49,423 nucleotides of DNA from Paraspadella gotoi. Taxonomy: Eukaryota; Animalia; Chaetognatha. Positions within the stretch are counted from its first letter, which is position 1. Every line of letters starts with the position of its first letter. The DNA lies in contig CM119264.1 of NCBI GenBank assembly GCA_051294375.1, positions 29,292,686-29,342,108 on the forward strand, written 5' to 3'. Below the pieces are notes generated by a model. It made no database searches. It was not told the origin of the DNA and saw nothing but the letters and a program-made list of their open reading frames with translations. Below are positions 8,427-33,847 of this stretch, in pieces. Both the position numbers and the translations under genes were made by a program.

Positions 8427-8455
8427 ATATACAGTCCTGTGCAAAAAAAGCATAC

Positions 8456-8689
8456 TATGGTGGACTAAAACCCACTAACCGTTCATCAGCGGCCATTAGT
8501 GCCGGAGGCAAGTCATTCGCCTCTCAACCCAAAGGTCCGGGGTTCTAGCCCGGTGGTCGTCTGGCAGTTAAGAGGGACGGGGCGCTTAACCCGCCTGTAA
8601 CATGGTGTTACAGCCTGATCCGAAGCTCAGGGATTGCTTATATTGAACGGTTCTATCACTAACTCATAACAATAATTACTGTCTCTTCA
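8456..8689 (+). mobile_element. tRNA-derived SINE-like repeat, family 1, copy 1 (carries twister motif)
   Basis: Near-identical to 22829-23059 and 23247-23481; tRNA-like head with acceptor gcggcca/tggtcgt and T-arm ccggg-gttctag-cccgg (B box); ends ctcttcaatactcttcaa. Confidence 0.8.
8563..8638 (+). ncRNA. Putative twister ribozyme, P5-type permutation
   Basis: P5 ggcagtt/gattgct; aagagg-gacgg; U^AAC at 8587/8588; P3 ctgtaac/gttacag; P4 cctga-tccgaagc-tcagg; T1 pseudoknot CCG/CGG; T2 GC/GC. Confidence 0.7.
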
Positions 8690-9575
8690 ATACTCTTCAA
8701 AGTTAAGTGACACTCGTTTTACACACATATTACAAAAAGTAATGATTGATGAATTGAACTAAGTTCGGAGAAGTGGCTGTCCTTGAATTCTAACTGACTA
8801 GGCTAATTCTGCGCATTGAATACGAAATGAATTCGGGTATAAATGGCGCAGAAGAGACGATGGCGCCGGTCAAGACGCCCTGGAGATGACGACGACAAAG
8901 TCTCGGTAGATAACGTCGGCTAAGGCCGAAAGGACGACGATCTACAAAGCCCAGGACTTGACGAAATGTCAATGACGTGTCTGATGCTTGAGAGTTGTAG
9001 AGTCTGTAGTAGTAGTTGAAGTTAGAAGTCCTGGGCAAGGAATAACAAAACATTTAGTACAAACTCAGCAAATATATATAAGTTTAAAGTGTCTTTCTTA
9101 CTTGTTTCTGAAGCCAATAATAAAATAGAGATGTTTCTCTCATAGAAAAGTCCACCAAACCAGCGATCACACAAAAAATAAGTTTCCGAGATATCTAATA
9201 AAAGAGTTTCTAAATGCTCTGAAAAGAACTAAAAACCCAGTGACAACTTTGAGATCTGAAGATACCACGTGGCCAGAATTTCGATCAGAATCAAATCGAA
9301 ATCTATCGAAATCACGGGCACCAATCAGAATCAGCTGTACACTGCCTTCGGAAATCTGTACTTTAGTATAAACAAAAGAGAGATCCTAAAGATGTCGTTG
9401 CGATCGCTAGAACGGAGGCATTTTCGATGTCAGTAATAAAGAACAAAAGAGCATGGGGAGAAAAGGTAGAGAAGCTGGATTTCCTCGTAATATAAAAGAT
9501 AGTTATTTCGTAACAATTGATAAATGTAGATTTTAAAATGAGAAATCCATATGTGTGAGTTATAAGAAAATTGGT

Positions 9576-10927: not shown

Positions 10928-11098
10928 TGGTATTCCTCTAACACGGGATTCCTCCCAACTGGATTCCTCCCACACGGGATCCTCCCACGCGGGATTCCTC
11001 CCCATGGGATTCGTCCCACACGGGATTCCTCCCACACGGGATTCCTCCCCGCGGGATTCCTCCCACACAGAATTCCTCCCCAAGGAATTCCTCCCACG
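10928..11098 (+). repeat. Minisatellite A array (intronic)
   Basis: Same unit as 290-802. Confidence 0.9.
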
Positions 11099-11183
11099 TA
11101 GGAGTTCAAATTAGAAAACCAAAAGACACATTTATTTGAATTTTTCAAAGATTCTCTCTCTCTATCTCTCATTGATTGATTGA

Positions 11184-11562
11184 TTGACCAAATTATGCCA
11201 ATTGACAAAAATATGCCAATTGACCAAATTATGCCAGTTGACCAAATTCTGCAAGTTGACCAAATTATGCCTGTTGACCAAATTATGCCAGTTGACCAAA
11301 TTATGCCAGTTGATAAGATTATGCCAGTTGACCAAATTATGCCGGTGGACCAAATTATCTTAATTGACCAAATTATGTCAGTTGACCAAATTATGTCAGT
11401 TGAACAAATTATGTCAGTTAACCAATTTATGTCAGTTAAACAAATTAAGTCGGTTGACCAAATTATGTCAGTTGACCAAATTATGTCAGTAGACCAAATT
11501 ATGTCAGTTAACCAAATTATATCAGTTGACCAAATTATGCAAGTTGATTAAATTATGCAAGT
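11184..11562 (+). repeat. Minisatellite B array, 18-bp unit (intronic)
   Basis: About 20 tandem copies of gaccaaattatg(c/t)cagtt. Confidence 0.95.
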
Positions 11563-11776
11563 TATTACAACTTAATTATCGTAGGCAGATCTGACATTGT
11601 TTGCTGAATCTTGTTTTGAGAGAACTAGAATTTATAAAAAGTGTTCAATTTTGTCCCGCCTTATTGTACATATAGTTATATTAACTTTTTACAAGGCATT
11701 TAAATCTGAAAAAAAAGTCAAAAGATTATTTTTAAATTTTTAAAATTTATTACAATATTGTTTTTTTTTCTTCTAG

Positions 11777-12463: not shown

Positions 12464-12970
12464 ATTAAAAAAAACCCAGTTCCTAAATGAGTTTCGCGAT
12501 TTTAACATTCTTACAATTAAACTTAAATAAAGACATTTGTCGTTGACTATTGTCATTGGAATAGAAATTGCGCAAATAAAGTGTTTAAAATTATACTATC
12601 TATAAAGTTCATCCCGGTCCAATGACTAATAAAACTTACTCATAATCCCTTCAATTTTATTAGCTCATTCTATTTTATTCTTTTTTGCACATTTTAATTT
12701 CATTCTTTTTTGCACATTTTCATCTCATTAACGTTTTATTAATTTATTTTTTGACAAATAAATTAACAAAAGTTGATAATGAAAAAAATAAAACCAATAG
12801 GTTTTAAAAAAGTATTACTAATTTTAATTCACACAGCAAAATCATCTTTTGAATTTCCAATTATATACAGTTTGGAATCAATACTTATAAATTATAATTG
12901 CATTTAAATGGCAATATATTTTTTAATCTTTTACAATAATTATCGTAAAAGAGCTTAAATGAAAGCTAAG

Positions 12971-13356
12971 TGTTTGGAAACCCTCGTTATGAAGAAGAGT
13001 CGTTGATTAATTTTAATTAATTATATTAACTACTTACAATAAAAAACAATATTTACAATTGAGAAATGTATATGTTATTACAACGTACTAACAATAATAA
13101 AAATAGACGAAAAATACTTGAGGCAAAATTGATTGTAGACAAAACGAATAATAAAAGGTTAACCGTTAAGACGACGTTATTTTAGAGAGAGAGAAAAAAA
13201 CCAGATTTTTCAAAATATAAAGGATGGAGAGAGAGAGAGAGAGAGTTGACCGACGACGACGAGAACAAAGACGTTGAGGTTTCATATTGTTTGGTGAGTT
13301 GTATTTTTGCGACGAGGGTAAGTTAATTGAACGAGGTCAATTCAGGTCACCAGACA
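12971..13356 (-). repeat. 3' LTR (~386 bp)
   Basis: Starts TG directly after the PPT and ends CA; imperfect terminal inverted repeat tgtctggtgacc / tgtttggaaacc. Confidence 0.6.
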
Positions 13357-15732
13357 TCCCCCCCCAAGACCGTCGCCGGAAGGGGGCGCGTCTGATCTTG
13401 AACGGAGGAGGCTCATCTTCGGAATTTTCGTCGGGAGGGTGGAGGGAGTCCGGCAGTGGGACTCTCATCTCCGGAATTCGATGTCGCGCCTTTGAAGCTC
13501 TTGGAGGTTGGCGTCTTGTTGTAGTTTCTGTTGGCATTGGCGTTGCGACGCTTGGCTCTCGTGGAGACCACCAGTGGGTGGACAATCGATGGAGAAAGGG
13601 CTTCGGCTTGAGGTTGTGCTGTACTGGGTTGGACTCGTGAAGAAGTCGCATCGCGCTCTTCCAATGGCAGGTCGACCGATTGGGCTGGCAGTTGGTGGCG
13701 TGGGTAGGTTATCTTCATCGATGATGGCAGGTTTAAGGCGGTCGACAAATGACTTGGTCGCCTCTTCCGGGTATTGTGACGATGAAGGTCTTTTCTCTCG
13801 CGCTCTTTCACTTGGAAGGGCCCGTCGTATGGCGCCGTTAGGGGGGCGTGGCCATCTCGCCTGATAAAAACAAATTTTGAATTTTTTAAAGAATCAGGAA
13901 AGTTTACTTTTATGTTTGCATGATTTGAGCCTGGTTTTGGTCGGAGCAGTGAGACATCATGGCGGAGGTTTTGGAGCATCTCCTGACGAGCCAATTGGTC
14001 AACCTCAGGGTTGACCTCGTTTGTGGTTGAGATGAGGTCGCCCGGAATAGCGAGAGTCTCCCCGAAGGTAAGCTCAGCTGCGGAGGCGCCCAGTTCTTTC
14101 TCGTGGCGCCGCGCGGAGACCAAGAAGCGTCCATGGAAGCTGATGGAACCAGTTGGCGCCGGCGTCTTTGCATCGAGCTTTGATTGATGCTTTAAGGTGC
14201 GATGGAATCGTTCCACGAGGCCATTGGCTTGTGGATGATAGGCCGTTGTTTGTGCGAGGCGATATCCAACAAGTTCAGAGAGTTGATGCCACAACTCGGA
14301 GGTGAACTGAGCTCCACGGTCGGAAGTAACTGTCATAGGGACGCCAAGCGTGCGACCCAACCATGGAGGAAGTTGACGGCGACAATTGGCGGCGGAAATT
14401 TCTCTGAGTGGAATCGCTTCAGGCCATCGCGTAAAAACGGTTCGATGCATGTAAGTAGGTGTGGCCGGCTGATTCTGGAAGTGGGCCAACAAGATCAATA
14501 TGGACGTGTTGGAAACGTTTCTCCGGTGTCTCGAAGGCTTGAAGAGGGCACGGACGTGTTCCTGCACTTTAGTGCGTTGGCACATAATGCACGTGCGGCT
14601 CCATTCTGCAGCGTCGGATGATGCCGAAGGCCAAACAAATTTTTGCGTTATTAGTTTTGTGTGGCGCGAACACCTGGATGGGCGAGGCCGTGAATGACGT
14701 CAAAAACGTGGCGGCGCCATTTTTTTGGAACAATGGGCGCGCGCGACCACTGCTGATATCGCAGATGAGATCAGCTTCACCAATTTTGACAACTTTGAAC
14801 GAATTCCAGTAAGTGGATTTCGAGTAGTGTTTTTTCACATCAGCGTCATTTTGTTGGTCATTCGCCATTGCATCAAAGTCAATTCCATGAGGGCCAACCG
14901 CTGCAACGATGCTGTGAGGCTTTTCGCAAGCCCTTGCTGATGCTACAAGGCCGGGTTGACCAGGGAGTTGGGGAACATCGATGCGAGAGAGGGCATCAGG
15001 ACGACGTTGGCTTTCCCTTCAATGAATCTGATGTCCGTTGTAAATTCAGCGACGCCGGCGAGCTGATAGGCTTGACGCATAGTGTGAGGCTCACTTTTTT
15101 TAACAAGGCCTGGGATGAGGGAGTTATGATCACTGTAGAGAGTGAATTGACGTGCTTCAAGGTATGGCCGGAAGTGACGGATGGCGAGATGAGCGGCGAG
15201 TAATTTTTGGTCAAAAGGCGGCCATTTTGTTTGGTTTGGTTTTAAGGGTTTTGAGAAAAAACCAATTGGCTTCCACAGGTCATCCTCGAGCTGTTCTAGG
15301 ACGCCGCCGACGGCGAGGTTGGAGGCGTCAACGGTGAGAGCAAGGCGGGCGCCGTCAATGGATGGAGCTAACATAGTTGCATTGACTAGTGCTGTTTTTG
15401 TCTCCTCGAAAGCCTTTTGTTGTTTTTCATTCCATGTGAGACACTTTGGATTGCCGCGTAGACATTCATAGAGAGGGAGAGCTTGTGGGCGGCGCTTTTG
15501 ATGAAACGCCGGTAATAATTGAGCATCCCCAAAAATCGTTGGAGCTCCTTGATGCTGGTCGGTGTTGGGAAGTTGTTGATGGCCTCAACTTTGTCCGCTT
15601 GAGGGCGAATTCCTTCGGCGTCCACACGAATGCCGACAAAGTCGAGAGATGGGACGCCAAAGACGCATTTTGCGCGGTTGATAATGAGGCCATTTGCTGA
15701 GAGTTTGTTGAAGCATCGGCGAAGATCTTCAA
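12971..15732 (-). mobile_element. Ty3/Gypsy LTR retrotransposon (CsRn1-like), partial, copy 1
   Basis: Frameshifted pol: RT thumb (LQRFLGMLNYYRRFI), RNase H (LTVDAS...WKPIGFFSK...YSDH), integrase (SDRGAQFTS...TTAYHPQANGLVERFHRTLK), APYDGPF motif; PPT at ~13357-13366; truncated at the N gap. Confidence 0.9.
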
Positions 15733-16644
15733 ATCTCTCTCTCANNNNNNNNNNNNNNNNNNNNNNNNNATAAAGATACATTTTTGCAATGTACAACAAA
15801 GATAAAGGATTTAATTAAATAATTAATGATAGCAACCATGACAATGATAATACCGACGATGACAAATTGGTTGATTGCTTAATTTTTTGATTGATTGATT
15901 GAATATTTGATTAATTGATTGAATAATTAATTAACTGATCAGTTCTGGCATTGTTAGCTCAAACTTGTTTGTTTTTTTGTCTTTTCATTATGACAAAAGA
16001 AATGACTACCCTGATGATGATTATGATGACAACGAGGATAGCACCATCATGATTAATTGAATGATTGATTGTTCAAATAAAATAAATTCATATCAGGCCT
16101 GTTAATTTTTAAATCTTTTTGTCAGGTCACTGACCAGGACAAAAGCAACAATGACATTGGAGATACAAATGATAACACTGACATTGTTTAATTGATTGAT
16201 TAATTAATTGATTAATTAATTAATTGGTTCTTGGTTTTTTGTTTTTTTTCATTTAAACTCATTTCCACTCGAACGATTCTTACAATTTTACAAATCTTAC
16301 AATTTTTCATAGTAAAAATTTCTCTTGTTATTTGTTAACAAAAAAGATTGTTTAAAATTATTCTACAAATGAATTACATGTCTAAAGAGAGTATTTTTAA
16401 AATAATAACAAATGTAAAATTTCTAAAGGAAGGAAGCGATGTGCACTCGAAACCGAAAGCGATCCGGGCTAAAAAAGTAAGGATTGCACCCGAAAACGGG
16501 AGCGGGAGGGTCTTGAAGCGCCGGATTGGCAGCGGCGGAAAAATCGATCGCTTCCACATCTCTGCTTATAATTGCATTTAAATGGCAATATATTTTTTAA
16601 TCTTTTACAATAATTATCGTAAAAGAGCTTAAATGAAAGCTAAG

Positions 16645-19600
16645 TGTTTGGAAACCCTCGTTTATGAAGAAAGAGTCGTTGATTAATTTTAATTAAACTT
16701 ATCATTACACTACTTACAATACAAAATATACAATACTTTACACATTGAGAAATGTATATGTTATACAACGTACTTTAGACAATACAATAAAAATAGACGC
16801 AAAAATACTTGAGGCAAAATTGATTGTAAAACAAACGAATAAATAAGAAGGTTAACCGTTAAGACGACGTTAATTTAGAGAGAGAGAAAAAAACCAGATT
16901 TTTCAAATATAGAGGATAGAGAGAGAAGAGAGAGAGAGTTCCTTGAGCGACGCGAACGAATCAAAGACGTTGAGGTCTTCATATTGAGTTTGGTGAGTTG
17001 TATTTTTGCGACGAGCGCGTAAGTATAATTGCAACGAAGGTCAATTCAGGTCACCAGACATCCCCCCCCAAAGACCGTCGCCGGAAGGGGGCGCGTCTGA
17101 TCTTGAACGGAGAGGCTCAATCTTCGGAATTTTCGTGCTGCAGGAGGATGGGTAGAGGAGTCCGGCAGTGGGACTCTCATCTCCGGAATTCGATGTCGCG
17201 CCTTTGAAGCTCTTGGAGGTTGGGTGCTTGTTGTAGTTTCTGTGTGGCATTGGCGTTTCGACGCTTTGGCTCTCGTGGAGACCACCAGTGGGTGGACAAT
17301 CGATGGAGAAAGGGCTTCGGCTTGAGGTTGTGCTGTACTGGGTTGGACTCGTGAAGAAGTCGCATCGCGTCTTCCAATGGCAGGTCCGACCGATGGGCAT
17401 GCAGTTGGTGGCGTGGGTAGGTTATCTCATCGATGATGGCAGGTTTAAGCGGTCGACCAAAATGACTTGGTCGCCTCTTCCGGGTATGTTGACGATGAGT
17501 CTTTTCTCTGCGCTCTTTCACTTGGAAGGGCCCGTCGTATGGCGCCGTTAGGGGGGCGTGGCCATCTCGCCTGAAAAAACAAATTTTGAATTTTTTAAAA
17601 AATCAGGAAAGTTTACTTTTATGTTTGCATGATTTGAGCCTGGTTTTGGTCGGAAGCAGTGAGACATCATGCGGAGGTTTTGGAGCATCTCCTGACGAGC
17701 CAATAGGTCAACCTCAGGGTTGACCTCGTTTGTGTTGAGATGAGGTCGCCCGGAATAGCGAGAGTCTCCCGAAGGTAAGCTCAGCTGCGGAGGCGCCCAG
17801 TTCTTCTCGTGGCGCCGCGCGGAGACAAGAAGCGTCCATGGAAGCTGATGAGAACCAGTTGGCGCCGGCGTCTTTGCATCGAGCTTGATTGATGCTTTGA
17901 AGGTGCGATGGAATCGTTCCACGAGGCCATTGGCTTGTGTGATGATAGGCCGTTGTTTGTGCGAGGCGATATCCAACAAGTTCAGAGAGTTGATGCCACA
18001 ACTCGGAGGTGAACTGAGCTCCACCGGTCGGATAGACTGTCATAGGGACGCCAAAGCGTGCGACCCAACCATGGAGGAAGTTGACGGCGACATTGGCGGC
18101 GGAAATTCTCTGAGTGGAATCGCTTCAGGCCATCGCGTAAAACGGTCGCGATGCATGTAAGTAGGTGTGGCCGCTGATTCTGGAAGTGGCCAACAAGATC
18201 AATATGGACGTTTGGAAACGTTTCTCCGGTGTCTCGAAGGCTTGAAGAGGGGCACGGACGTGTCCTTGCACTTTAGTGCGTTGGCACATAATGCACGTGC
18301 GGCTCCATTCTGCAGCGTCGGATGATGCCGAAGGCCAAACAAATTTTGCGTTATTAGTTTTTTTGTGGCGCGAACACCTGGATGGGCGAGGCCGTGAATG
18401 ACGTCAAAAACGTGGCGGCGCCATTTTTTTGGAACAATTGGGCGCGCGCGGACCACTGCTGATATCGCAGATGAGATCAGCTTCACCAATTTTGACAACT
18501 TTGAAACGAATTCCAGTAAGTGGATTGTCGAGTAGTTTTTTCACATCAGCGTCATTTTGTTGGTCATTCGCCATTGCATCAAAGTCAATTCCATGAGGGC
18601 CAACCGCTGCAACGATGCTGTGAAGGCTTTTGCAAGCCCTTGCTGATGCTACAAGGCCGGGTTGACCAGGGAGTTGGGGAACATCGATGCGAGAGAGGGC
18701 ATCAGTGACGACGTTGGCTTTCCCTTCAATGAATCTGATGTCCGTTGTAAATCAGCGACGCCGGCGAGCTGATAGGCTTGACGCATAGTGTGAGGCTCAC
18801 TTTTTTTAACAAGGCCTGGGATGAGGAGTTATGATCACTGTAGAGAGTGAATTGACGTGCTTCAAGGTATGGCCGGAAGTGACGGATGGCGAGATGAGCG
18901 GCGAGTAATTTTTGGTCAAAAGGCGGCCATTTTGTTTGGTTTGGTTTTAAGGGTTTTGAGAAAAACCAATTGGCTTCCACAGGTCATCCTCGAGCTGTTC
19001 TAGGACGCCGCCGACGGCGAGGTTGAGGCGTCAACGGTGAGAGCAAGGCGGGCGCCGTCAATTGGATGGGCTAACATAGTGCATTGACTAGTGCTGTTTT
19101 TGTCTCCTCGAAAGCCTTTTGTTTTTTCATTCCATGTGAGACACTTTGGATTGCCGCGTAGACATTCATAGAGAGGGGAGAGCTTGTGGGCGGCGCTTTT
19201 GATGAAACGCCGGTAATAATTGAGCATCCCAAAAATCGTTGGAGCTCCTTGATGCTGGTCGGTGTTGGGAAGTTGTTGATGGCCTCAACTTTGTCCGCTT
19301 GAGGGCGAATTCCTTCGGCGTCCACACGATGGCCGACAAAGTCGAGAGGGACGCCAAGACGCATTTTGCGCGGTTGATAATGAGGCCATTTGCTGAGAGT
19401 TTGTTGAAGCATCGCGAAGATCTTCAAGATGTTGCTCTTCGTTGTCGCTGGCAACGAGGATGTCATCGAGGTACACGAAGACGTGCGGGACATCGCGGGA
19501 GGACACATCCCACTCTGGAAGTCCTGACTCGCGTTTTTGAGACCAAAAGGCGTGCGCGGGTACTCCCAAAGACCATGGGCGTGATTACCGCTGTCTTCTT

Positions 19601-19788
19601 GATGTCTTCTTTTGCAACTGGAATTGTGAGATAGCCTTTGCAGAGATCTATTTTTGAAAAAATCTTTTTTCCTGCGATGTCGGCATTGAAGTCCATCAAA
19701 TTCCTGATGAGGTAGCGATCATCCTTAGTGACGGCGTTGAGGCGACGATAATCGCCGCAGGGGCGGATGGAACCATCAGGTCACCAGA
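16645..19788 (-). mobile_element. Ty3/Gypsy element, copy 2 (indel-rich; RT-RH-IN-LTR, lacking gag and protease)
   Basis: Colinear with copy 1, plus the RT N-terminal part (PDGSIRPCGDYRRLN, FSKIDLCKGY, YLDDILVAS); LTR at ~16645-17060. Confidence 0.9.
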
Positions 19789-22119: not shown

Positions 22120-22828
22120 TCCACAATATCTTTCAAACGGTTAAGTAGATATGCCTTTTTTGTGAAGGTAATTAAATTTTTATATGTTTTGATTCAAAAA
22201 CGTTTAATATTGGAGGCAGAAAAAAAGGGATAGAGAGTAGCATATTTTTATAAGGTCATAATGTTTGAACAGGTCCCCTAAATACTAATCAATACTAATC
22301 CTACTAATACTAACAAATACTAGCTAAGCATAAGCATGCAATGTCCTTAAGACAAATAGGATTAGTTTTTTTTTCGAGCCTGAACCAAAATACCAGACAT
22401 TGTCATTCTCAGTAGTGAGTAGTGATATTTGAGTTAAAATTAATAATGATTAGATATTAAAAGAGGGGAGAAATTAAGGAATTGTTTCCAAACTTTTTTT
22501 ATTTCAAAATTTGTTACAATTTTTTTCAGCCAAGTATTATATATAATTTTAGCTCAAAAATTACGAAATTTATCTTTAATTTGTTTTTGTTTCTGTTTAA
22601 TAATATTTCATTTGCCTTTAAATTTTGGATTAAAGAATTTTCTGAATATGACCTTATGCTTTAGTGACAAGTAATTAGGAAGATAAACAAGTTTGATCAA
22701 ACAATAGCGTATCTGCAAGCGTCATTTAGCGGTAATAGAGTAACTGCAAGCGATTAGAGAGTATCTGCAAGCGTCATTAGAGATGAAGAGACAGTAATAA
22801 TTGTTATGACTTAGTGAAACAACCGTTC

Positions 22829-23059
22829 TATGGTGGACTAAAATCCACCAACCGTTCATCAGCGGGCATTGTTGCGAGGCAAGTCATTCGCCTCCCAACC
22901 CGAAGGTCCGGGGTTCTAGCCCGGTGGCCGCCTAGCAGTTAAGAGGGACGGGCGCCTTAACCCGCCTGTAACTCGGTGTTACAGCCTGATCCGAAGCTCA
23001 GGGACTGCCTATATTGAATGGTTCTATACTAACTCATAACAATAATTACTGTCTCTTCA
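22829..23059 (+). mobile_element. SINE-like family 1, copy 2 (twister motif at 22934-23009)
   Basis: Matches 8456-8689; preceded by an inverted copy of its own 3' end (22785-22828). Confidence 0.8.
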
Positions 23060-23246
23060 TTGGTGAGACGACTTCCGAACACAACAGCAACAACAACACT
23101 TTCAGGCGACATGCCTCAACCTGGCGATGCACTTTCCGCCCACAACACATCAGGCGACATGCCTCAACTTGGTGATGAACTTTCACCAACAACAACAATT
23201 CACTGAAGAGACGCAACAGACTTCTCCCTATGGGAGGGGGGGATTG

Positions 23247-23481
23247 TATGGTGGACTAAAATCCACCAACCGTTCATCAGCGGCCATTGGTGCCGGAGGC
23301 AAGTCATTCGCCTCCCAACCCAAAGGTCCGGGGTTCTAGCCGCGTGGCCGCCTAGCAGTTAAGGAGGGACTGGGCGCTTAACCCGCCTGTAACTCGGTGT
23401 AACAGCCTGATCCGAAGCTCAGGGACTGCCTATATTGAATGGTTCTGTCACTAACTCATAACAATAATTACTGTCTCTTCA
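23247..23481 (+). mobile_element. SINE-like family 1, copy 3 (twister motif at 23354-23430)
   Basis: Matches 8456-8689; followed by an inverted internal fragment (~23486-23511). Confidence 0.8.
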
Positions 23482-24397
23482 GTTCCATATTAGCAGTCCC
23501 TGAGCTTCGGAGTATCTTCAAGCGTCATTTAGCGGTAATAGACTATCTGCAAGCGGTAATAGAGTATCTGCAAGCGTCATTTAGCGGTAAGCAGCGAATT
23601 AGATGATATCATATATGGTCAGATTAATTTTCTAATTTTTTAAATTTATTACAATTCACTACTTATAATTATTTATAATTATAGTTTTTTTAATTTGGTA
23701 GTTGTTTGAATTCAGATGATAATGCAGGTTATGGTCGTACGGACTGACGGACGGACAGAGAGAGAGAGACTGACGGATAAAGATCTTTTTTTTTTGAATA
23801 TTTTTTTCATAATTTAAGATGATATAAATTCTAAGATCGGATTTGGATTCGTTGCAGTAGGAGGAGGAAGAGAGATTAAAATTTGGTAGAAACTAAATAG
23901 CTTTTAACTTTTGATTTAAATACAATTCATGGTAGTGATTAGAATATTTATAAAATTTGTTTATCTTGTATTTGTTTTAATTTCCTCAGTATTACTTTCT
24001 GTAATTTAACTTCTCCTGAAATACTCAAAATGGCAAAGTCAAATGACAGGGTGTAAATGTAAAGTACAGATCTGCTTTTATGTACAGTATAACATTTCTA
24101 GCTTGCCAATTACTTTTTTTTTAAATAACAAAATTAAATGAGAATTATTTTAATATTTATTAGACACTAAAATGAGGCAAATTAGCCAAATATACCTTTC
24201 CAATAAACATCTTTCATACAAATAGAGAGAAAAAAAATACGGGCGTAACAAGAGGAGCATTACAATAAAGTTACAATGAGTCAACGTCGGAGGGAATTTT
24301 TTTTTACGTAATTAAAGTTTCATCCTCTTCGTTGTGAGTGAAAATGCGATGTCACGTGACTTTTTTGCGGTATCACAGTTTTTGAGTATGACAACTG

Positions 24398-31208: not shown

Positions 31209-32197
31209 AAAAGAAGGCTCGATCCCTATTGCTTTTAAGATTTTATTGAACGGTTTTGTCACTATCACTAACAATAATTAATGTCTCTTCAAGAATAAGA
31301 TAAAGAGACTAACAAGGGACAAACGACGCCTAGAACCAATATCACAGGCGTGAAATTCAAAACATTTCATACAGACTGGCTTAAAACGTAAAAATACGGT
31401 AAAGCCATGTTGAAATATGGTATTTATCTGGCCCGGATCGCGCATGATCAATGCTTATTTTTAATTGATGTCCCCATTGGATAACCTACGTCAACCATTT
31501 TCAATACAGACCGGAACGCGCTTAAAAAAGCTTTTAGCGTGCAAAAACTTGATATTCCTTTCTATTTGCTCTAAATTTAATATAAACTCTCTAAATTTAC
31601 CCCGCGCTCTACCTGAAACAGATAGTAAAAACAATATAGTTTCTTTCGATGGTCTTAGAACAAAAAAAAATTGAAGGCTTGACTATGCAGTTTTCACCTA
31701 AAAAACCAGTTCATTTGATTGCTTTATCAAGCATTCAAGATTGCAAGAATTTAAACTTTTCTTTTTTTTTATCTATAGAGAAGACAATAAGCTATCCGAA
31801 CCGTACTGATATGTATGTGATTGTTCTATTTACAAAAGATCAAGCAGGGTTTTTGGGAAAAGGGAAAAAACGGTCTGACCAGTTCATTTAAATACCATTT
31901 TTGGGCATGATAAAATGGGTATTTCGATCGCGCTCTACCTCCGTTGGCTTCCAAAGCGCCAAGCTTTCGAAATCTACCCATATTGATATAATTTATATGG
32001 GCCTTGACTATGCAGTTTTGAATAGAAGTGAATATAAAGGAATCTTGATCGGAACTTCGATTCGAACGATGCGCAGCCCTAATTATTTAATATTTAAAAA
32101 AATGACGAAAAAAATTTAAGAATAGGCAAAAGAACAAATCAGGGCCGAGCAAGCATTAAAACAAACAAACGAAACAAGAGTAAAACAAAAAGGCAAA

Positions 32198-33226
32198 TTA
32201 AATCAACCAACTATTAAACAATCTAATCAAATCAACCAATGAAATCATCATAAGAATCAAACAAACAATCAAATGAATCAATCAAATGAACCAATCAAAA
32301 CAACCAACTTCAAATGAACCAATCAATCAACCAATCAAATCAAGTCAATCAAATCAACTAATCCAATTAGCCAATCAAATCAACCAAACAAATCAGCTAA
32401 CCAAACAGCCAATCAAATCAGCAAATCAAATCAACCAATCAAATAAACCAACTTCAAATGAACCAACTTCAAATGAACCAATCAAATCAGACAATCAAAT
32501 CATCCAATCAAATCAACCAATCAAATCTGCCAATCAAATCAACCAATCAAATTAACCAATAAACCAATCAGTCAATCAAATCATTCTAACAAATCAACTA
32601 ATCAAATTAGTCAATCAAATCAGCCAATCAAATCATCCAATTATATCAGCCAATCAAATCATCCAATAAAATCATCCAATCAATTCAACCAATCAAATCT
32701 GCCAATCAAATCAACCAATCAATTGAACCAACTTAAAATCAGTCAATCAAATGATCCTATCGAATCAACTAATCAAATTAGTCAATAAAATCAGCCAATC
32801 AAATCAACCAATCAGTTCAGCCAATCAAATCATCCAATAAAATCATCCAATCAATTCAGCTAATCAAATCAACCAATCAAATCAACCAATCAAATTAACC
32901 AATCAACCAATCAGTCAATCAAATCATTCTAACAAATCAACTAATCAAATTAGTCAATCAAATCAGCCATTCAAAACATCCAATCAATTCAGCCAATCAA
33001 ATCATCCAATCAATTCAGCCAATCAAATCAACCAATCAAATTAACTAATCAACCAATCAGTCAATCAAATCATCCTATCAAATCAACTAATCAAATTAGT
33101 AAATCAAATCAGCCAATCAAATCATCCAATCAAATCAGCCAATCAAATCATCCAATAAAATCATCCAATCAATTCAGCCCATAAATCAACCAATCGAATC
33201 AACCAATCAAATCAACCAATCAAATG
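32198..33226 (+). repeat. ~12-bp minisatellite (aatcaaatcaacc / aatcaaatcagcc)
   Basis: About 1 kb degenerate array abutting a FucTA splice donor. Confidence 0.9.
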
Positions 33227-33233
33227 ATCCAAC

Positions 33234-33400
33234 CTCAAGGCGTTAAAGAACTTCTCCGTGATGTAATCGACGCAGTTCGAGTTTTCAAAGGCGAGATAGT
33301 AACGATAATCTCTTCGCAACATCTCGAGGCACTCGTCGTGTTTCGATCGAGGGCAGCTGAGGTTCCCGCAGCCTCCGTAGACGTCGACCGGGTAGTAGAG
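33234..33400 (-). CDS. FucTA: Core alpha-1,3-fucosyltransferase exon (alpha-1,3 FucT motif)
   Basis: LYYPVDVYGGCG...YRYYLAFENSNCVDYITEKFFNAL; cccAG acceptor, GTTGGA donor. Confidence 0.95.
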
Positions 33401-33847
33401 CTGGGTAAGGTGGTAAAGAGAGCGAGAGTTAAGGGATGAGGAATAAGGGAAAGGTCGACGGAAGGATGGGAAGTCAATTGATTCTCGTCTTGGATCTATG
33501 TACAAAAACCGCCTTGGGGGCAAAACCCTTAAGCCTGGTTTCAAGGCCAGGAATCTTTCCATGGCTGCTAGAGGGGGTTAAAGAAGTTGCGGATAGCACT
33601 CTTCAGCCCCACTTAGAGCCTCCAACCCTCTCGCTAGCAGGTCTCAGAGAACTTTTAATCAAGACTCTGTTAGTCTAGTTAATTAAAACCCAGATTACTC
33701 GGCTTTCCTAATCATTTTTAACGTGCAATCTTTTCCTTCAATAAATAATACATAAAATTATATTTTCCAGTCATAAAATCTCCGACTTTGCATTTTTGGC
33801 CCGTCAAAAGCCTCACCATTCGCTTTGATAGTTCACAATGTGTCTAT

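Follow-up and report, generated by a model that had tools for sequence, protein, structure and literature searches.

What kind of mobile element is the ribozyme-bearing tandem near the middle of the window (the whole stretch of 49,423 nucleotides of Paraspadella gotoi contig CM119264.1 that was analysed), and whose enzymes would copy it? The original prediction read the tandem as a retrozyme-like unit with inverted fragments as its ends, possibly moved by a Penelope-type reverse transcriptase. That account contained no primer-binding site (PBS), no polypurine tract (PPT), no 4-bp target-site duplication (TSD), no tRNA-like head and no single split fragment, all of which are identified here. 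A PBS and a PPT, ends that are fixed, a solo LTR and the PPT/LTR junction in common with Ty3/Gypsy together point to LTR-retrotransposon integration, and the cassette is almost certainly a TRIM, i.e. a non-autonomous LTR retrotransposon. The retrozyme-like design itself held up, in the form of repeats with predicted ribozymes whose double cleavage would yield 421 nt of RNA.

Structure of the element and its target

The whole element covers 653 bp (22829-23481) and consists of two LTRs and an internal region; analysis of the window found no retrotransposon protein within it. Its direct repeats, 22829-23059 and 23247-23481, are 94.5% identical by blastn, and alignment agrees with the predicted pair of repeats around a 187-bp spacer, except that the start of the 3' repeat had to be corrected to 23247. 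The 5' LTR (plus strand, 231 bp as assembled) runs from TA to CA, the 3' LTR (plus strand) measures 235 bp as assembled with contigs diverging exactly at both of its ends, and the internal region between them (23060-23246, plus strand, 187 bp) contains a duplicated 35-nt unit and recurs in the family. Another copy, a solo LTR at 8456-8689 (plus strand), is flanked by the TSD ATAC at 8452-8455 and 8690-8693; it is called copy 1 here, the 5' and 3' LTRs of the cassette being copies 2 and 3. Its flanks alone can also be read as a 5-bp duplication, but the GTTC site of the cassette and the contig ends fix the length at 4 bp. All three copies align from a TATGG start to a CTTCA end. Canonical TG...CA termini are absent, the integrated ends being TA...CA with the TG placed between the PPT and the 3' LTR; TA starts are also present among published Helenus LTRs (PMC10886601).

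Comparison of the flanks places the left TSD GTTC at 22825-22828 and the right one at 23482-23485 (both plus strand), and the chance of each 4-mer match, for two independent TSDs (GTTC and ATAC), is about 0.005 from base composition. The inverted pieces reported on both sides, which a similarity search matched at 22784-22831 and 23483-23511, do exist as sequence, but they are not terminal caps. When the element and one GTTC are removed, the two inverted halves (22784-22828 and 23486-23511, minus strand) rejoin without a gap into 71 nt, and 64 of these 71 positions agree with the 3' end of the copy 1 LTR read on the opposite strand. Because the empty site can be rebuilt in this way and is bounded by GTTC, the complete element sits within an older piece of its own LTR that runs on the opposite strand, and the caps are a split integration target rather than ends of the element. 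Sequence similarity revealed another truncated LTR piece, again from the 3' end and with no clear TSD, at 31241-31291 (plus strand); this piece and the split 71-nt fragment may both be captured partial cDNA.

Outside the element, the flanking satellite that had been described is indeed repeated sequence on both sides, but it amounts only to a duplicated 70-nt block of host repeat (22709-22778 and 23512-23581, plus strand; 91% identical), built of 21-31-nt units. Contigs of three sequencing runs (X1, X2 and X5) join 22704 to 23578, giving the flanking repeat without the cassette, and this join may stem from an allele that is empty or from a further copy of the host repeat.

Priming sites and relation to Ty3/Gypsy

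A tRNA-Trp-like PBS is located at 23061-23072 (plus strand), with its TGG one base past the CA of the LTR, so that TGGTGAG.. starts one base beyond the 5' LTR; many contigs have an extra C there (CC variant). With the extra C, the site matches the tRNA-Trp PBS shown in Fig. S2 of PMC10886601 at 12 of 13 positions, and with the letters of the window itself at 10 of 13. The PPT at 23232-23243 (plus strand) consists of purines at all 12 positions and is followed by (T)TG and the 3' LTR.

Two Ty3/Gypsy pol remnants, 95% identical to each other and rich in frameshifts, lie on the minus strand at about 12900-15744 and 16570-19788, with a scaffold gap between them. Both lack their 5' part and have an RNase H domain followed by an integrase domain, with Ty3 as the best solved match. 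The PPT and LTR start of one remnant (17052-17068, minus strand) match the PPT/LTR junction of the TRIM, which makes its family a candidate helper, and the other remnant has the same junction by sequence match (13348-13364, minus strand). Three places in the window carry the pattern G7-A-TG-TNTGGTG, namely the TRIM and the PPT/LTR starts of the two remnants; the match is only 17 nt long, and its shuffle control is no fair test, since the pattern was composed after the match had been seen. One remnant starts without TG, as the TRIM does. As a candidate 3' end of the Gypsy LTR, the TRIM-like ending TCTTCA was found at 16670 and 12995, yet no fitting TSD accompanies it. The second remnant has the first 13 bases of its LTR fused directly to the reverse transcriptase region at a CCTGA overlap.

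Recurrence in public contigs

Part of the cassette is present in 10 of the 12 sequencing runs listed. Four runs from three studies (X1, X2, X5 and X9) were analysed, with 8609, 16197, 3154 and 1049 contigs aligned. Run X9, which was only presumed to be RNA, behaves like DNA. In the same order of runs, 124, 128, 99 and 25 contigs enter unrelated flank exactly before 23247, and 152, 149, 100 and 36 do so exactly behind 23481; the TRIM family is abundant and has sharp, fixed ends. Contig depth, which does not equal copy number, is of the same order in spacer bins as in LTR bins and far above that of unique flank, and the spacer therefore recurs in public contigs, the outcome that the original prediction had named as a check. 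Single contigs bridge the LTR-spacer junction (22994-23125 and 23030-23175) and the spacer-LTR junction (23143-23295). The left junction of the locus (22680-22854) has no differences in X1 and X2, whereas no contig of the four runs covers the right junction; all four leave 23512-23575 without cover, which is itself no proof.

Between the two Gypsy copies, 2906 columns contain 86 gap openings and 32 mismatches, and this preponderance of indels suggests an error-prone long-read assembly. The odd letters at 22953-55 of copy 2 and at 23371 of copy 3 are those of a minority of the contigs. The indels previously noticed near T1 of copy 3 are present, as an extra G at about 23363 and a T at 23371, where the contigs mostly have G; this T1 defect is probably a sequencing error, mis-sequencing being the likelier of the two explanations offered for it.

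tRNA-like head of the LTR

Each LTR is laid out as a terminal hairpin followed by an 8-bp stem that encloses two domains, one tRNA-like and one twister-like. A Helitron/Helentron reading of the terminal hairpin was dropped in favour of the PBS, PPT and TSD evidence, and the same evidence was preferred to a minus-strand hammerhead, where CTGATGA stands without a matching GAAA stem.

The tRNA-like head of the 5' LTR (22862-22931, plus strand) has a 7-bp acceptor-like stem, a degenerate box A and a box B core GGTTC at 22912, and its counterpart in the 3' LTR was located by sequence at 23280-23351 (plus strand). Spacing from box A to box B is 44 nt in copy 1; box A deviates from TRGCY/YGG and box B has one mismatch. 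ARAGORN predicted no tRNA gene, and Rfam, with E values up to 10 allowed, gave no tRNA hit on the window, on the cassette or on parts of copy 1 searched in isolation. The head would be at most a promoter relic, as has been proposed for Helenus; that of the 5' LTR is likely to serve as a Pol III promoter. No run of four T, the Pol III terminator, is present anywhere in the element.

Predicted twister fold

Behind the head, the 5' LTR contains a P5-permuted twister fold (22935-23008, plus strand; segment order as in Table 1 of PMC8501958) with a predicted cut at 22958/22959, and the 3' LTR contains the fold at 23355-23429 (plus strand) with a predicted cut at 23379/23380 and T1 broken as assembled. 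Both cut positions agree with those predicted originally; their separation of 421 nt is computed, and cleavage itself is a prediction from the fold. The cleanest twister is that of copy 1 (8563-8638), with a predicted cut at 8587/8588. The segments follow the order P5, GA-CGG, a 6-nt linker, U^AA, P2, GC, P3, P4 with the loop UCCGAAGC, and P5. The twister residues U^AA, GC, U-CCG-AAGC and GA-CGG are in place, and stems P3, P4, P5, T1 and T2 are present. Table 1 of PMC8501958 was the basis of a descriptor, tuned to permit a short P2, that matches copies 1 and 2 but not copy 3, so that the twister predicted in both LTRs of the cassette is recovered in the 5' LTR and not in the 3' LTR as assembled. 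On shuffled sequence, the descriptor matched 1 of 20,000 versions of the LTR and, for the window, gave one match in 30 versions.

Several features set this fold apart from published twisters. P2 has three bases on its 5' side, which form two direct pairs and possibly a third through a bulge or mismatch, against four pairs in the published examples of PMC8501958. P4 has 5 bp and is closed by an A-U pair, where a G-C pair is 'essentially invariant' according to PMC5408937. An intramolecular P1 is impossible because the 6-nt linker cannot make a hairpin; P1 is dispensable in vitro (PMC5408937). The linker is self-complementary in copies 1 and 3; two copies of it can pair as a duplex of 6 bp (-8.5 kcal/mol), and the twister may need dimerisation, the self-complementary linker replacing P1 in this model. 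With pseudoknots ignored, the nested part of the twister fold reaches -16.9 kcal/mol and a competing fold -26.7 kcal/mol. Folding z-scores of the LTRs are modest, from -1.3 to -2.0.

Stem variants common in the contigs at 22928, 22931 and 22934 stay paired as G-U, and the best 40 of the 61 contig differences include no common variant at the twister core residues, with loop positions varying. The family may simply be young, in which case this conservation would not be due to selection. A twister was found by Rfam neither in the window and the cassette nor in parts of copy 1 taken by themselves (E up to 10), and hammerheads are absent by Rfam and by inspection, the twister fold sitting in their place. 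The microRNA hits of Rfam in the window are inverted repeats only. We consider the twister probably active.

Relatives were also sought in other collections. A pattern search returned one viral and 57 metagenome loci, and because none of these 58 was similar to the element by blastn at E 0.1 or had a twister layout, they are chance matches; the phage collection contained no match to the element. Among at least 120 viral loci of the pattern scan, the descriptor passed a single one (1/120), the phage locus L091:80-150 (IMGVR_UViG_3300005458_000001). The twister layout of this locus is of the P1 type and complete, P1, P2 and T1 being full, and on that layout the locus is a candidate twister. Its P4 is also closed by an A-U pair and it was also missed by Rfam, which gave no hit on 20 of the 120 viral loci. 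The Rfam twister models may overlook a whole subclass, of which the layout of L091 would be an example.

Discussion

Plant LTR retrozymes (PMC4918200) are the closest published design. Like the TRIM, they are non-coding, have a ribozyme in each LTR, leave solo LTRs and combine 4-bp TSDs with a Gypsy-like PPT box, their PPT/LTR boxes being held in common with Gypsy. Their PBS box is also shared with Ty3/Gypsy, a comparison that the Gypsy remnants of the window, without their 5' part, preclude for the TRIM. The plant elements as described there carry type III hammerheads and a Met PBS, whereas the TRIM has a twister fold and a Trp-like PBS, is smaller (653 bp, with a predicted 421-nt monomer) and has a putative tRNA-like internal promoter.

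The Helenus/TRIMp3 elements of Kojima 2024 (PMC10886601) resemble the TRIM in their size below 1 kb, the tRNA-like stretch in the LTR, the PBS, the PPT and a dependence on Gypsy that is likely for the TRIM; their animal families have 4-bp TSDs as well, and the Trp-type PBS T-TGGTGA is common to the TRIM, Helenus-2_SyJa and Helenus-2_SyUm. The tRNA likeness of the TRIM is weaker, with its degenerate box A, no hit to a tRNA model and no T run after the head. The TRIM sequence was not found in the supplement of PMC10886601 by motif searches of six to ten letters. The main text of that paper describes no ribozyme for Helenus and names ribozymes only when citing retrozymes, whereas the TRIM has a twister fold in each LTR. 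Inspection by eye of Helenus-2_SyJa-LTR and Helenus-2_SyUm-LTR in its Data S1 revealed what looks like a type III hammerhead just behind the tRNA-like head, with a GUC site, stem I, CUGAUGA, stem II, GAAA and complementary loops; on these letters, the two would count as LTR retrozymes of insects that have a Pol III promoter. In many of the other Helenus LTRs of Data S1, a T run follows the head.

With type P5 twisters (PMC5408937, PMC8501958) the fold has in common U^AA, the GC of L2, U-NNN-AAGC in L4 and GA with a three-base T1 partner, and P3, P4, P5 and both pseudoknots are possible. It differs from the published descriptions in its 3-nt P2, the A-U pair closing P4, the linker in place of P1 and the failure of Rfam to detect it, and it is located in an LTR, whereas the Schistosoma twister lies at the 5' end of an RTE LINE (PMC8501958). 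Metazoan non-LTR retrozymes and Penelope pseudo-LTRs (PMC7229834, PMC7761336, bioRxiv 10.64898/2026.07.22.740005) also have ribozyme repeats a few hundred bases apart. Weak and possibly dimeric ribozymes occur in animal non-LTR retrozymes too, and the linker of the TRIM recalls their dimeric hammerheads. As these sources present them, however, the metazoan elements have type I hammerheads and are without LTR, PBS, PPT and 4-bp TSD, all four of which are present in the TRIM.

Taken as a whole, the model of a Gypsy-mobilised LTR retrozyme that produces a circle of about 421 nt is moderately likely. Pol III would start at the head of the 5' LTR and read through both LTRs, and since no run of four T is present the transcript would cross both ribozymes. 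Both twisters would then cleave at U^AA, probably aided by pairing of the self-complementary P1 linkers, and double cleavage would release a 421-nt RNA without terminal repeat that retains the PBS and the PPT. An RtcB-type ligase of the host would be expected to close this RNA, given a product without terminal redundancy. Priming by tRNA-Trp would allow a Gypsy reverse transcriptase to start at the PBS, and, if plant retrozymes are a guide, reverse transcription round the circle could restore the two LTRs together with the cut ribozymes. Priming from the PPT and the action of integrase would finally give the 4-bp TSD. The predicted fold of the circle is only moderately better than that of shuffled sequence, with a z-score of -2.1, 2 of 100 shuffles as good and 51% of bases paired. 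More tentatively, and with considerable doubt, the family could be an animal LTR retrozyme with its own Pol III promoter and a twister that works only as a dimer, the P1 linkers of both LTRs pairing within one transcript, in which case only full-length elements, and not solo LTRs, would release a circle.

The cleavage chemistry could also be vestigial, with the element being a TRIM of the Helenus type that replicates through ordinary linear RNA and in which the twister is a dead passenger, captured along with a SINE head that brought RTE 5'-end sequence. The short P2, the missing P1, the A-U closing pair, the competing fold 10 kcal/mol lower and the silence of Rfam all agree with this, as do the proposal in PMC10886601 that such TRIMs originated by SINE insertion into an LTR and the similarity of P3 to that of the Schistosoma RTE twister (PMC8501958). 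We nevertheless consider it rather unlikely, because a linear RNA would have no Pol III terminator to end it, the core lacks common variants among the best 40 of 61 differences while loops vary, and the P5 permutation cannot be rebuilt in a simple 5'-end LINE ribozyme. An active twister might alternatively serve as a maker of 3' ends only, cutting in the 3' LTR alone and leaving a terminal repeat of about 100 nt, from tRNA head to cut site, on a linear RNA that undergoes normal strand transfer with no need of a circle. Partial cleavage is plausible for so weak a fold and the geometry leaves a usable R region, but the same ribozyme is found in both LTRs, the 5' one is transcribed first, and retrozyme RNAs cut at both sites are known to form circles (PMC7229834), so that this arrangement appears improbable.

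Mobilisation by Penelope, in which the tandem would be a retrozyme with inverted terminal fragments, gains some plausibility from the direct repeats bearing ribozymes and from the two truncated 3'-end fragments (the split one at 22784-23511 and that at 31241-31291), which resemble 5'-truncated copies. The inverted pieces are, however, a single split target with a 4-bp TSD, and the metazoan non-LTR retrozymes described in PMC7229834 lack the LTR, PBS and PPT. The PBS, PPT, fixed ends, solo LTR and Gypsy-type PPT/LTR junction of the TRIM contradict this part of the original prediction, so that the Penelope reading is very improbable and largely refuted. Even less credible is a tandem created by error-prone assembly. 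The assembly is rich in indels (the 86 gap openings against 32 mismatches of the Gypsy copies), no contig crosses the whole cassette and 23512-23575 is uncovered; yet LTR-spacer and spacer-LTR junctions occur in independent contigs, the left junction is free of differences in X1 and X2, and a PBS, a PPT and a TSD would not arise by misassembly. The concern that the tandem might be an assembly artefact is thus answered by the junctions in public contigs.

If the Gypsy-mobilised retrozyme model is right, its interest lies in what it joins. The literature found, outside subscription papers, Repbase and bioRxiv supplements, contained neither an LTR retrozyme with a twister nor a described animal LTR retrozyme. 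In that literature, LTR retrozymes are known from plants, have type III hammerheads and show no obvious Pol III promoter, retrozymes of animals are without LTRs, and the known eukaryotic role of the twister is only at the 5' end of RTE LINEs. A 2026 preprint (bioRxiv 10.64898/2026.07.22.740005) divides retrozymes into plant LTR elements of type III and animal non-LTR elements of type I, and a review of 2020 goes no further than a hint of type III elements in insects. On well-supported anatomy and predicted chemistry, the TRIM family would unite LTR retrozymes and TRIMp3, with three modules that have been described separately, a TRIM, a tRNA-derived promoter and a predicted self-cleaving ribozyme, joined in one family. 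The making of circular retrotransposon templates would then be a second natural job for the twister. The model also offers a way for Pol III TRIMs that lack a terminator to set their RNA ends. The more tentative dimer reading, together with the apparent hammerheads of the wasp Helenus elements, would mark out a class of such TRIMs with a ribozyme in place of the terminator. A family this small, abundant and harmless could serve as a system for dimer-dependent twister cleavage.

Additional features of the window

Two further features were noted away from the cassette. The same pair of minisatellites (15-16-nt and 18-nt units) appears in several arrangements at 295-1315 and 10932-11563 and is probably a dispersed repeat family. 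An exon-sized piece of a GT10 fucosyltransferase (PF00852, E 2e-18) lies on the minus strand at 33215-33418.
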